Shown: positions 1 through 17,950, counted from the first letter of the whole stretch. The stretch is DNA of 63,873 nt, filler included, from Bonamia ostreae (GCA_040357525.1; 43 parts of 43 records of this genome joined end to end with filler, not necessarily neighbours in it), one strand, 5' to 3'. The notes: generated by a model not told the origin, from the letters alone. A program made the numbers and translations.

Positions 1-863
1 AATTCCGGCCAATTCGGCACTTGATAAACTTCAACAAACGGATGTTTTACAAACGCCTTAATAATGTTCGGCGCTATTTCCGGATATGCAGCCATTACCG
101 AATTATCATAATACACTCTCAGACGCCATTCTTTCATTGTCACAACATATTTGATTGTAACAACAAATTTAATCGCAACAACATGTTTAAAGTACCTGGA
201 AAAGCTTTCGTCAAAGCCTCCACATTCCTGGCTAATCCGAGTACATAAGCGGTAACTTGGCTTTTTTTCTTGAGACGAAGATATTTTTCTCCAAAAAGAG
301 AACTATTGTCGACAAACCAAACGACGCTGATGACGTTATAAGGGCCATTTTTGGGTTTCTTAGAAAGCCGGAATAAGTCGTTTTTTCGAAAAGAAGAGAA
401 GAGTTTAGTCACCGGAACAAAAGTTTTGGGCGTGAACCCACCAAAACTTCCTCTATATTCGAGATCAATTTGGTCTAAACAGCGATTGTGAAAAGATGGC
501 GTGCAAGCAAAACAATGCCATTTTTTGGAGTTTATTTGTTTCAAAATATTTTTCGTCGCTGTTTTACCGTAATTAGCTGCGATACAGCCCTTTTTGCATG
601 AAAGACTAAAAAACAAGGCAAAAGTACTTAGCGCAATTTTGCGTGTAACAATGGAACAGTCTGATGTCGCCTTCCCCGCAAACATCTATTTATGTGATTT
701 TGTGGAAACTGCATAGGCAATCAGGTGAATTTGAGGATTTTTTAATGGCTACAATGCAATTGAAACAGGTAGATGGCTTTCCCCCGTAATAATTTCTGGG
801 ATGGGGGTAGACCTTTTTCTTTTTAAAACAACATCTGCATCTCGATTTTTCGAAAACGGCCAT
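1..863 (-). CDS. ADD (ATRX-DNMT3-DNMT3L) zinc-finger protein fused to a putative glycosyltransferase-like domain; 3' truncated
   Basis: Exons 863-710, 685-615, 589-196, 130-1; GT-AG introns of 24, 25 and 65 nt. Spliced N-terminus: CRCC..HP..CFNC..CNVC..CYTQNC..FCLGC..NYG..WHCFACTP (12-Cys ADD pattern). It is followed by VISVVWF..YVLGLARNVEALTKAFPEWRLRVYYDNSV. Confidence 0.8.
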
Positions 864-1061
864 AACGGCTAATTTAATGTAATTTAGTTGTCTTGTATAT
901 AATTTTATGTTTTTAAGCTTTTATGGATTGATAAATAATTTGATTTATTTTGTGATACTTTCTGTGATAAATGGTTAGTGTATACTTTAAATAAAGGATT
1001 TGTTTTAATTTTGCGTGCAAAAATTTAATGGCGGAAAAATGTAAATTTTCAAAATTTTGCT

Positions 1062-1399
1062 TTATTCAAAAAACACTTTTTCTGTATTTTCTGTTGCTAT
1101 CTTTATTAGTTCCTTAACATCGATCGATTTTAGAGCTGCTACAACCTCCGCAATTTGGCTTAAAATCATTGTTGATGATATTATTGCTAAATCAAAAAAT
1201 GTTCAAAAAGAAAGTTTAAAATGGGAATATGAAACATTATGAAACAAGGTTCGTTTCTTGATTTAACTGCTTTTCCCAGTTCAAATCGTTTTATCGGTTT
1301 TTGCTCTATAGTCGTTTTAACGTATTTATAAGACGCGTGTGATTTCTTTATGCCGCACCAAGGAGAATCTGTTTCGAACATCATTCTTTGTCGCAAATT
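1062..1399 (-). CDS. TATDN1: TatD-family DNase, C-terminal part
   Basis: RMMFETDSPWCGIKKSH...RNEPCFI, intron 1159-1235, then IQIAEVVAALK...NTEKVFFE-TAA. Matches the TATDN1 C-terminus. Confidence 0.9.
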
Positions 1400-1499: not shown

Positions 1500-1745
1500 G
1501 TCAATTCTGCGAAATTTTGGAATAAAAAATCGCAAATTTAAAAATAAACAAAAATTGTCAATTCTGCGAAATTTTGGAATAAAAAATCGCAAATTTAAAA
1601 ATAAACAAAAATTGTCAATTCTGCGAAATTTTGGAATAAAAAATCGCAAATTTAAAAATAAACAAAAATTGTCAATTCTGCGAAATTTTGGAATAAAAAA
1701 TCGCAAATTTAAAAATAAACAAAAAATGTCAATTTTGCGAAATTT
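1500..1745. repeat. Tandem repeat, 57-bp unit, probably intronic
   Basis: GTCAATTCTGCGAAATTTTGG... recurs at 1500, 1557, 1614, 1671 and 1728. Confidence 0.95.
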
Positions 1746-1764
1746 TGTAATTTGCTTAAATTTA

Positions 1765-2859: not shown

Positions 2860-5800
2860 TTTTAGTTGTTGCTGTTTATTAAAAACGAAAATCGATTNNN
2901 NNNNNNNNNNNNNNNNNNNNNNNNNNNNNNNNNNNNNNNNNTTAATTAATTAANNNNNNNNNNNNNNNNNNNNNNNNNNNNNNNNNNNNNNNNNNNNCTT
3001 CACCTTTTCATTTGTTTCTTTGTTGACATCGGGGCATGGCGTTTTACAAATACATCCTGTTTGCTTAAATAAATTGAGCATTTAGATGAAAAAAAACAAA
3101 ACAAAGCTTAATAATTGTTCACGAGAAGAATATTCAAATACTATTGAAAGTAATTCATATTTAAAATATCAATATTGTGCATATTCTTGTGTACTGAGAA
3201 ATAAAATATTGATGTTAGCAATTGACAAAATGAGAGGAGGTATACAAAATCTTGTCATCCAAATTGCTTATCAATAACACATGAGTGGAATGTCTTATCC
3301 TCAATCAGTGGATGTTTTATATGCTAAATATTCAAAGGTACTGAGAAAAAGTTTCATAATAAATGTATTTTATTTAGAAAGGATACACAGGAAAATGAGG
3401 TATGCATAATCATGGATCCAAAATTAAATAACATTTGTTGATTACAGTGATTTTCGTTTTTGACATTATATTACATGTACATATATGTTATAATGCATCG
3501 AAATTGTCTAATGTGAAATTTATAAAAGGGCATCGCTCACCTGAGACACTTCGACCCTGCTGTTGTTCACTGTTGTACTTTTCCAAAGATAACGTTTTCA
3601 ATCTTTATACTCATGAACATGTTTCAAAGCAGATTATGACCAAACGTATCCACAAAGGGTCATTAACTGACCTTCACAGAACATATTCANNNNNNNNNNG
3701 ACTAATCATGACCCTGCTTTCTTTGACCTAACTATTTTCTGGTGTTTTGACATGTACAATTTTGATCCAATATTGTGGTGTCACACTACTTCTTTTTGTC
3801 ATATTTTGAACAAATACTGCCCAGGGATGCTTGCATATTATAAATCTAATCAATCAAGATTTCGGTGTTCTTGAGAAGAAGCTTCTTTTACATATGCCTC
3901 TCTCAAATCAACTGGTAAAACTTAAACCCCTATTATGTCCCCACTCTGCCCCTAGGGACAATGGTGCAAACGAACTTAAAGTATATGCATGAAGGTGCTG
4001 TGCATATATCAAATTTTCAGTAGTTCTTGACAAGAGTGTTTCCTATACATTCACATGTGAAACCCTCATCCTCTAGTATGACCCAATCCAATATCAAGGC
4101 GTCATGAATTAGGGGTCATGATTTGAAAGATCTAAAATCTACAGTATGTCATGAACATTCCGTGTGCATTTAAGATTTTCTGGCCTAGTGGTTCTTGTGA
4201 ATACTGTTAAATACGTTCCTCTATATCCAAATTGAAAACATCGAGCCTCTATTGTGACCCTACCCTACCGTCCTACCCCTAGGGAGCATGATTTGAACAA
4301 ACATGAACTATTGGTAGATATATAACTTTCCTGGTACAGTGGTTCTTGAAAGGATTTTAAATTAAACCAATCTATTATTGTTTTTTCGTGATTATNNNNN
4401 NNNNNNNNNNNNNNNNNNNNNNNNNNNNNNNNNNNNNNNTTAATTAATTAANNNNNNNNNNNNNNNNNNNNNNNNNNNNNNNNNNNNNNNNNNNNACAAT
4501 TAACCCAAATCTATTTTTTTTATCAATAAAGCATTCGCGTAATAATGAAATTATATAATCAAACTAAAAATAGGGTATCGATACTGGTTTTTGAGAGGAA
4601 GAGTAAAAGATAAAAAAGGTATAAAAGTCTTTAATAGGATTTGAATCTATTCTCTTTACAGAAGTGGTCAGGCATAGCCTAACTCCACGTATTGTCGCAA
4701 ACCTTCATGTTCTGATTCTGGAAAATTCTGTTAATTATTTTCGACACATTCCATGCCCCAAATTTAGAATTATGAGTTTTCCCTAAGGAGGTAGAAATGA
4801 ATCGAAAATCTAAAGTAGAAAAATTTGACAAAAAATTAGTAGATACGCATTTGGTTTCTTGGAAAAGTTTTTGACATCTTTAAAATCTGTATCCTTGTTA
4901 AAATCAACAGAAATATATGTTTAATGAAAAGTGAAATGATAAAAAGCTTTTCGAAGAACAACGTGCATGTTTTTAAGTCTAGTTTGTCCATATTGTCCCA
5001 CCTGTAGAGTTTCCATTTTTTTCTGCCGCCAATCGAGATTAAAAGATGGATTACTCATAATCTAAACCCGGGTGAGTTAGTAAATGATACACTGTACTTT
5101 AATTATGACAGCAGCATGTATTAATGTTAAAATTGTGAACATAAGTCCGTTATGACGTACTTTCAGGCACATTTGAGTAGAAACGTCGGTCGAAGGGTAA
5201 ACCGTTACCGGTACCGACATTCAAAGGTTTTCCAGGATCCAATCGAAACTCCTCGAATGTCTCGCACAATCGATATAGATCTATGTCGAGTGTACGATAC
5301 ATTCGAGGAGTTCGGATTGGAGTGGATGTAGGCTAAGCCTGTCCACTCCTCTAAAGAGAATGAATTTGATTGAACCCACTCTAGATAACAAACTACGTTG
5401 TAAGATAATCTCTCAATGCCCATCTCTAGTTAGTAACATCTTCTGACCGCCAATGGACATGCCCAGTCGATATTTAAAGATAACAAATGTAGTAGAATGA
5501 AAAATGCCACCCGTGAAACACTAAATATACGAATTAAACAGGTCACGAGCGAGACTGGTTTCGAGGCTCGAACAATAATATTCATCACATGGCACACCTG
5601 CGAGTCTTCATCAAAATCCTACAACAGAGTTCACAAGAACAGCAAAAATTCTGAACAAAACTTCTCTGCGAGTTCGTATTTATTTTCTCCTACACACCTT
5701 TGAGGTAAAAAGCAACCTATAAGTACTTAGACCTGCATTTTCTCTAAATCCGTCCTACAAGCACAAGTCCTAACAATGTTCATGTGAATGTTCCTTATAA

Positions 5801-17385: not shown

Positions 17386-17950
17386 NNNNNNNNNNAAATG
17401 TGTGAATCAGGTTTATCGCATACAATTCAAATTTCATGTAATACCATACTATCTTTCTTTCTATCTCTCTCTCACTTACCCTCTTTTCTATCTCTCTCAG
17501 ATGAATGGAAATGTTTCTTAGGCCAGTCACCCTGTAGAACAGCAATCTGCAGTCTAGTGATTTCACTTGCATACATATTAAGTATGGCAAAATATGGAAT
17601 TCAAAGTGGTCGAAACAAGAAGCAATGTTATCTTTGGAATCTGCATTCAGGAAATAACTATTTCTGTGTTTTATGCCGATACTGTGTGTTCATGGTCGTT
17701 TCCATAACAGAATGACCGTACACAGACTGTAGTTATCATTCAAAGAAATAACCCAATTCATACGAATGTTGCTCTGCTCTAAGAACACAGCCATCCATTC
17801 CATTTAATGACGTCAAATCATGGATTGATTGATCGAATATTGTTTTACGTNNNNNNNNNNNNNNNNNNNNNNNNNNNNNNNNNNNNNNNNNNNNTTAATT
17901 AATTAANNNNNNNNNNNNNNNNNNNNNNNNNNNNNNNNNNNNNNNNNNNN

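Follow-up and report, generated by a model that had tools for sequence, protein, structure and literature searches.

A spliced and expressed gene of the rhizarian oyster parasite Bonamia ostreae (assembly GCA_040357525.1) encodes an ADD domain, a conserved linker and the start of a domain of a glycosyltransferase family with the A type of fold (GT-A). The gene occupies the first 863 positions of the stretch of DNA that was analysed (hereafter the window, 63,873 bases, G+C 32%) and is read from its minus strand. Two chromatin enzymes, a DNA methyltransferase and a remodelling ATPase, are known to be guided by ADD domains. The fusion of an ADD domain to a glycosyltransferase (GT) domain, arranged alike and with a conserved linker in two rhizarian lineages that are distant from each other, argues for a third ADD-guided activity, which would be sugar transfer at chromatin. 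There is about an even chance that the protein is a two-module chromatin-targeted sugar transferase, in which the ADD domain would dock on a histone tail and the GT-A domain would glycosylate a nearby chromatin acceptor. Nuclear location, histone binding, catalysis, donor and acceptor are what we infer for this protein.

Gene structure and expression

An earlier note on this DNA, made from the sequence alone, had proposed a peptide interrupted by three GT-AG introns, and the coordinates of all three were reproduced. The frame starts at a minus-strand ATG (863-861) with an in-frame stop upstream at 921-923. After removal of the introns it gives 249 residues without a stop and is open at the contig end (position 1). 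A 694-nucleotide (nt) contig of sequencing run X4 (record 4) follows the window from 798 to 196 minus exactly 24 and 25 nt, and then 196 is joined to 130 across 65 nt. The 25-nt intron is still present in a DNA contig (record 2, 350-632) of run X3. The DNA runs X1 and X3 cover only small pieces of positions 1-1399, although their word shares with it are high. The RNA label of run X4 is a guess; since its contig lacks the introns while the DNA contig retains one of them, the X4 contig derives from spliced RNA. It spans exon 1 to exon 4, so the two halves of the protein are linked by one transcript, as had been supposed.

Window positions 1-1399 are one whole 1399-base Bonamia ostreae contig, and because the contig has only these 1399 bases the gene is not extendable within the assembly. 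Extension past position 1, which had been suggested, succeeded for the 10 nt by which the X4 contig reaches beyond that position and no further. The size of the contig fits the published assembly, which is highly fragmented (9705 scaffolds, N50 1417 bp) and has on average 2 introns in an mRNA (PMC11069148).

The public gene model, P0003 (232 amino acids), is MES1921878.1, 'hypothetical protein MHBO_003411, partial [Bonamia ostreae]' at NCBI. In this model introns 1 and 2 are removed, and intron 3 is read as coding sequence up to a stop within it. A database protein of 257 amino acids, P0010, which falls into the same 90% cluster as MES1921878.1, is the fully spliced product, letter for letter, and contains the peptide given in the earlier note. 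The X4 contig and P0010 thus correct the public gene model: intron 3 is spliced and the frame runs to the contig end. The parts of the gene are as follows.

Exon 1, 710..863, minus strand: residues 1-51 plus one base; GATA-like zinc finger (C9, C12, C33, C36) and the first Cys of the PHD-type finger.
Intron 1, 686..709, minus strand: 24 nt, GT..AG; absent from the X4 transcript contig, P0003 and P0010.
Exon 2, 615..685, minus strand: middle of the PHD-type finger (NVCGEGD...YFCL).
Intron 2, 590..614, minus strand: 25 nt, GT..AG; skipped in the X4 contig, kept in the X3 DNA contig.
Exon 3, 196..589, minus strand: 131 codons (P0001); end of the ADD domain to about 500, linker about 499-344, start of the GT-A-like domain from 343 downwards.
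Intron 3, 131..195, minus strand: 65 nt, GT..AG; the joint 130|196 is present in the X4 contig.
Exon 4, 1..130, minus strand: open at the contig end; part of the GT-A-like domain, EWRLRVYYDNSV...VPNWPE, corresponding to about residues 33-65 of the viral family described below.

The GT-A-like part of exon 3 opens at PYNVISVVWF, which would form the first strand and helix of the domain. The fusion is independent of any splice, since exon 3 reads without a break from the last part of the ADD domain through the linker into the second domain. Intron 3 consists mostly of an 18-nt unit in 3.3 copies (window 132-190).

The N-terminal ADD domain

It was found that a HMMER search with exon 3 against 1.84 billion representatives (E<=1e-3) returns seven proteins. 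These are the gene's own product, two Nonionella stella proteins (P0005 and P0009), the fragment P0007 (187 amino acids), the ATRX-like protein P0008, and P0004 and P0006. The last two are repeat proteins with many summed stretches; they were judged spurious and rejected as relatives. P0008 passes the Pfam ADD_ATRX model (E=1.2e-8) and served as control. The ADD alignment was built from the four relatives P0003, P0005, P0007 and P0009.

In the N-terminal 112 residues, 12 Cys, one His (H29) and one Trp are invariant in all four relatives. The invariant Trp is given as W107 in one place and as W98 of WxCxxC in another (Met numbering). The cysteines of the GATA-like C4 finger (C9, C12, C33 and C36, 4/4) are in register with the first two Cys pairs of ATRX (3ql9_A). 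In the PHD-type finger C51, C54, C64, C69, C74, C77, C100 and C103 are invariant together with W98, and they are aligned with the PHD cysteines of ATRX.

P0003 alone finds an ATRX ADD structure in the PDB with E=2.9e-4 over residues 21-115, that is, over the whole domain. With the four-member profile the ATRX ADD match reaches E=7.3e-10 (positions 10-115), followed by DNMT3B and DNMT3L at about 2e-5 and then by DNMT3A. Twenty-four of the 26 PDB matches of this profile are ADD-bearing ATRX or DNMT3 chains, 21 of them DNMT3, and the other two are ZZ domains of CPEB1. Single exons are less informative: in Pfam, exon 3 has weak matches to C1 and PHD-variant models and exons 1, 2 and 4 have none, phmmer with exon 3 alone gives 0 matches in the PDB, and the Atlas yielded no match of use.

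The invariant His of the relatives is aligned with ATRX H189. The mutation H189N weakens binding of H3K9me3 by ATRX, as stated in the portion of the source cited (PMC12900699). The position of ATRX D217 is Asp in the relatives, with Glu in P0007. Judged from these profile matches and metal ligands, the N-terminus is a genuine but divergent ADD domain, and its precise reading specificity is left open by the position of ATRX Y203, which is taken up below.

Two metagenome contigs (L063:2935-3441 and L064:2033-2458) encode the same protein of ADD domain and linker as P0007, and it is again cut by the contig end. With the Logan fragment P0007 they make up a third source of this ADD subtype.

Linker and architecture in Nonionella

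The two proteins of the foraminifer Nonionella stella (EukProt), P0005 with 1027 and P0009 with 681 amino acids, have the same order of ADD domain, linker and GT domain. Both carry long C-terminal tails rich in K, R and S, and neither has a signal-like segment N-terminal to the ADD domain. The linker motif LDxxDxEYRGxxGGF(S/T)P(K/R)(S/T)F, also given as LDxxDxE(Y/F)R...GGF(S/T)x(K/R)(S/T)F, is common to Bonamia and Nonionella and lies in the following regions.

Bonamia: window 344-478, minus strand, residues 113-157.
P0005: residues 120-165.
P0009: residues 120-160.

By sequence comparison, the complete ADD-linker-GT architecture therefore exists in a second rhizarian lineage, in two Nonionella paralogues with an RDxD motif. 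The earlier note had called for a search of Rhizaria for the same architecture, and these two proteins are what it yields. The linker of P0009 reads RSTRGGFSKR, which bears a faint resemblance to STGG in the H3 tail peptide shown in PMC12900699.

The C-terminal domain and its viral relatives

The C-terminal domain of P0005 and P0009 matches nothing in Pfam, PHROGs or NCBIfam. Word-index searches with the P0005 domain (205-653) and with alignment A2 (23-653 residues) gave nothing, and with alignment A1 they gave only P0009 and P0003. By language-model features, residues 140-470 of P0009 are closest to unnamed arthropod and phage clusters (0.97), with GT8 and Nucleotid_trans only at 0.91. A tblastn search of phage genomes with P0005 gave a weak match (E=1, residues 196-313) in LR756501.1, a 735-kb uncultured phage. 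The same search with P0009 gave 187 cyanophage records, all at query residues 1-70 and with E>=1, and these were judged to be chance matches of the Cys-rich part.

The open reading frame in LR756501.1 (L001:1459-2136, 226 amino acids), which overlaps the end of a GT2 gene, carries the motifs ISFSLWG, YPGW, WRF and RDxDSR. A family with this series of motifs had been named in the earlier note, and it does exist: starting from this frame, 61 IMG/VR loci were gathered, of which several belong to giant-virus bins. When 185,579 prokaryote genomes were scanned for the family, there were 85 pattern matches, none of which was confirmed. In hhalign the rhizarian alignment matches four viral sequences with 98.9% and E=1.4e-17, and 45 viral sequences with 99.5% and E=1.5e-22 over 162 columns. 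On this profile evidence the C-terminal domain of Bonamia and Nonionella is homologous to an uncurated viral GT-A family with members of about 220 amino acids.

No Pfam GT family was matched in any of 45 members of the viral family, and NCBIfam (0/4) and PHROGs (0/1) gave no match either. AlphaFold modelled one viral member, with the 45 sequences, at a predicted local distance difference test score (pLDDT) of 95.6 and a predicted template modelling score (pTM) of 0.92. Foldseek gave 291 PDB matches to this model at E<=1e-3, and all rows among the top 50 listed are glycosyltransferases, led by the PBCV-1 capsid glycosyltransferase (E=1.4e-7), glycogenin, the Skp1 alpha-galactosyltransferase and AvpGT. 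In the comparison with viral models, the five best matches (E 1e-12 to 7e-21) were members of the family from mimivirus-like, Aureococcus, irido-like and tailed viruses, and generic glycosyltransferases came next. Thus the viral family member has, according to its model, a GT-A fold. A search of PDB sequences with profile A5 had a best E of 0.14.

The 45 viral loci have 89 immediate neighbours, of which 27 are GT2, while others include further GT families and sugar-nucleotide epimerases and dehydratases. The only match to nucleotide metabolism among the neighbours listed is one dUTPase. Two viral contigs (L040:3260-4678 and L056:3098-4690) have a longer open reading frame with the GT-A family domain in its C-terminal half; the N-terminal half is a GT2 domain in the former and a GT10 fucosyltransferase domain in the latter. 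Among 20 named cluster members of the viral family, 16 are called 'hypothetical protein' and four 'protein O-GlcNAc transferase', which is an automatic and unconfirmed label.

In a tree the two Nonionella domains share one long branch, separate from the 45 viral sequences (99/99); their own branches have lengths of 2.2 and 2.6 changes per column. Bonamia, whose part of the domain is too short for this purpose, was not included. Neither the origin of the domain nor the donor and the direction of transfer can be read from this tree.

Catalytic residues

The reference was a set of 37 columns, of which 16 are invariant in the 45 viral sequences and 21 more are conserved in 90% of them or more. Of these P0005 keeps 16 and P0009 keeps 20, and Bonamia keeps 4 (Y, G, N and P) of the 10 that it covers. 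Residues kept in both Nonionella proteins are Y16, G19, N23, P32, R75, R90-D91-x-D93, two Gly, D158, F161 and an aligned H177; the C-terminal part of this residue alignment is less certain. The RDxD motif, which in the viral model follows the strand E84-90, reads RDLD and RDTD in the two Nonionella proteins. By the earlier note, this half should carry WRF and DxD-type motifs. RDxD was found in both Nonionella proteins; their WRF is degenerate (FRL, VRF) and their RDxDS is without the final R. With this pattern of kept and changed positions the rhizarian domain is best treated as a divergent sister group and not as a regular member of the viral family. The changed residues on the presumed acceptor side fit either a new acceptor or a loss of activity.

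Proposed mode of action and alternatives

The protein would be soluble, probably nuclear, and built of two modules. The ADD module, a GATA-like and a PHD-type finger with three zinc sites, would dock on a histone tail, most likely on the N-terminus of H3 as in ATRX and DNMT3. The conserved linker would join it to the divergent GT-A domain, where RDxD and a divalent metal could bind a nucleotide sugar, and the sugar would be passed on to a chromatin-bound acceptor close by. This acceptor is more likely to be a chromatin protein than a modified DNA base. The gene surroundings of the viral relatives and the nearest solved folds both speak for a protein or a glycan as acceptor rather than for a DNA base. 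In analogy to DNMT3A, the catalytic domain may in addition be gated by the ADD module. The ADD domain of DNMT3A binds H3 unmethylated at K4 (H3K4me0) and normally blocks the catalytic domain, as described in the part of PMC10393158 cited. A more far-reaching version of this proposal, which we hold only tentatively and consider clearly less probable, is a putative reader-writer of Rhizaria, in both haplosporidian parasites and foraminifera. In it the ADD domain would read the H3 tail, a GT-A domain unrelated to OGT would add sugar to histones or DNA, and the catalytic module would be shared or exchanged with giant viruses and phages.

Several observations weigh against a chromatin-targeted transferase. 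The best Pfam match of the N-terminus, PF21255 (DNMT3 ADD-PHD), reaches only 20.6 bits (E=5e-4) in P0003 and 20.9 in P0009 against a cut-off of 27, with no match in P0005 and P0007. Pfam ADD_ATRX matches none of P0003, P0005, P0007 and P0009, only the control P0008. The assignment to ADD made in the earlier note is thus borne out by the structure matches but does not reach the thresholds of the curated Pfam models (PF21255, PF17980/PF17981). The position of Y203, which is a contact to K9me3 in ATRX by the account in the cited part of PMC12900699, is Ala in Bonamia, Ile in P0005 and Phe in P0009. At the other end of the protein, the Bonamia contig stops about 90 residues into a GT domain of about 300, before the WRF/DxD region, so the catalytic motifs of Bonamia itself are unseen. 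AlphaFold of full-length P0009 (four sequences) reached a pLDDT of only 39.4, with an alpha/beta strand-helix pattern. The GT-A type of fold that had been expected for this half is therefore well modelled for the viral member but not for P0009, and for the rhizarian domain it rests on homology. The viral relatives sit in glycan clusters, and no DNA-modification family is among the Pfam families listed for their neighbours (25 of 32). Both Nonionella proteins have lost W74, R95, D119, H120 and H123 and most of the block H115-x-M-R118-D119-H120. Further losses are H115 in P0009 and R99 and R118 in P0005.

These losses, the small share of reference columns kept and the very long branches in the tree are what one would expect if the GT-A-like domain were a pseudo-enzyme, which may bind a nucleotide sugar or act as a scaffold that the ADD domain tethers to chromatin, with no transfer. 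However, R90-D91-x-D93, N23, G19, Y16, R75, D158, F161 and H177 are kept in both paralogues and the hhalign score stays very high, which fits purifying selection on the donor and metal site; we regard a pseudo-enzyme as unlikely. A little less likely again is an active enzyme whose ADD domain recruits it to a non-histone partner or to a nucleocytoplasmic substrate away from chromatin, so that no chromatin mark would be made. The ADD domain of ATRX also binds macroH2A and a CHD4 motif, as reported in the cited part of PMC12900699. The nearest solved folds, which include glycogenin and the Skp1 alpha-galactosyltransferase, and the tyrosine of the K9me3 pocket, which is not conserved in Bonamia, also point this way. 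On the other hand, the characterised ADD domains among the PDB matches are all in chromatin proteins, and the Nonionella proteins have long basic tails.

It could also be that the acceptor is a DNA base and that the protein is a histone-guided DNA glycosyltransferase. The base J glucosyltransferase and the phage hydroxymethylcytosine (hmC) glucosyltransferases have an analogous outcome. GT-A enzymes can act on nucleosides, as AvpGT with Ara-A ranks 30-37 in the fold search, and DNMT3 is a case of DNA modification guided by an ADD domain. However, the 25 of 32 Pfam families listed for the viral neighbours include neither a DNA hydroxylase nor any family for base modification, and no partner oxidase is known, which leaves a DNA-base acceptor improbable. 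An artefact, in which a chimeric assembly or a mispredicted splice has joined unrelated pieces, was rejected as very improbable. The contig is short (1399 bases) and comes from an assembly whose published description, in the part cited, reports high fragmentation and an N50 of 1417 (PMC11069148). Yet one transcript contig spans the gene from ADD exon 1 to exon 4, the passage from the ADD domain over the linker into the GT domain lies within a single uninterrupted exon, and the same order is kept in two Nonionella proteins.

Comparison with known systems

The ADD domain of ATRX (3QL9, 2JM1, 2LBM) is the best match to that of Bonamia. Both have a GATA-like C4 finger and a PHD-type finger with 12 Cys in register, and both have the His of the HP motif (H189) and Asp at D217. 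In ATRX the ADD domain sits on a SNF2 ATPase, not on a GT-like domain, whereas the Bonamia domain differs from that of ATRX in Ala at Y203 and in the spacing of its third Cys pair, which is 4 and not 2. DNMT3A, DNMT3B and DNMT3L resemble the Bonamia protein in having the ADD domain N-terminal to a transferase, and the best Pfam match is DNMT3_ADD_GATA1-like, below its cut-off. Unlike DNMT3, the Bonamia and Nonionella proteins have a GT-A domain instead of an S-adenosylmethionine (SAM) methyltransferase, and they have no PWWP domain.

With the viral GT-A family the rhizarian domain shares Y16, G19, N23, P32, R75, RDxD, a GG motif, DQxFL and the aligned H177. Viral members are stand-alone proteins of 215-244 amino acids in clusters for glycan synthesis, with the motifs ISFSLWG..Y..GA..N..YPxW..WRF..RDxDSR..HIMRDHP. 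The rhizarian domains, in contrast, have about 300 amino acids with insertions and are without the HxMRDH block.

The nearest solved folds to the viral model are PBCV-1 A64R (2P6W), glycogenin (1LL0 and others) and the Skp1 alpha-galactosyltransferase (6MW5), with E from 1.4e-7 to 1e-6 and template modelling (TM) scores of 0.5-0.57. All three are soluble GT-A enzymes with DxD which glycosylate proteins or protein-linked glycans. The identity of the viral family to these enzymes is 11-16%, a level from which CAZy family, donor and stereochemistry are not inferable.

Precedents for sugar on nuclear proteins or DNA are OGT and SPY and the base J glucosyltransferase JGT. OGT and SPY are GT-B enzymes with TPR repeats. 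To our knowledge no OGT, SPY or JGT carries an ADD domain.

No description of an ADD-glycosyltransferase fusion or of the viral GT-A family was found in the literature searched, so far as its texts were accessible. The main text of the genome paper on Ascetosporea has 0 occurrences of 'glycosyltransferase' or 'chromatin', and its supplements may list the gene (PMC11069148). The ADD-GT protein is a putative reader-writer fusion with a new catalytic partner, and there is a real chance that chromatin modification of a new type is marked by it. An active enzyme would point to a sugar mark on histones or DNA that has a dedicated and genetically identifiable writer. The present analysis also gives a predicted fold and a first eukaryotic context to a widespread viral family which is without a Pfam, NCBIfam or PHROGs model.

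The neighbouring gene and the rest of the window

Upstream of the ADD-GT gene, on the same contig and strand, lies the end of a second gene.

TatD-like gene, 3' end, 1046..1399, minus strand: exons 1399-1236 and 1158-1065; stop 1064-1062; 77-nt intron 1235-1159; poly(A) site 1046.

Two RNA contigs (X4 record 5 and X7 record 6) skip 1159-1235 and have poly-T/poly-A ends at 1046. The matches of its two exon pieces to Pfam TatD_DNase are below the threshold and collinear (profile positions 196-227 and 224-252 of 253). This gene is a separate polyadenylated transcript with its own poly(A) site and is incidental to the fusion gene, as the earlier note had suspected. One of the two RNA data sets with the TatD-like transcript is labelled mollusc metagenome.

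The window as a whole is a pseudo-molecule, and its adjoining pieces are therefore not genomic neighbours. It is made up as follows.

Pieces, whole window: 43 contig pieces of about 1.4 kb each, slowly shrinking in size, joined by 42 linkers N44-TTAATTAATTAA-N44.
Gap of 10 N: 3690-3699.
Gap of 10 N: 17386-17395.

The linker N44-TTAATTAATTAA-N44 has a stop in all six frames; it occurs first at 1400-1499 and then every approximately 1490 bases. In a tblastn search with the Nonionella proteins and the spliced Bonamia product only the gene itself was matched, and none of the other 42 pieces. The second piece opens with a tandem repeat (window 1500-1751) of a 57-nt A+T-rich unit in 4.4 copies with 98% matches.

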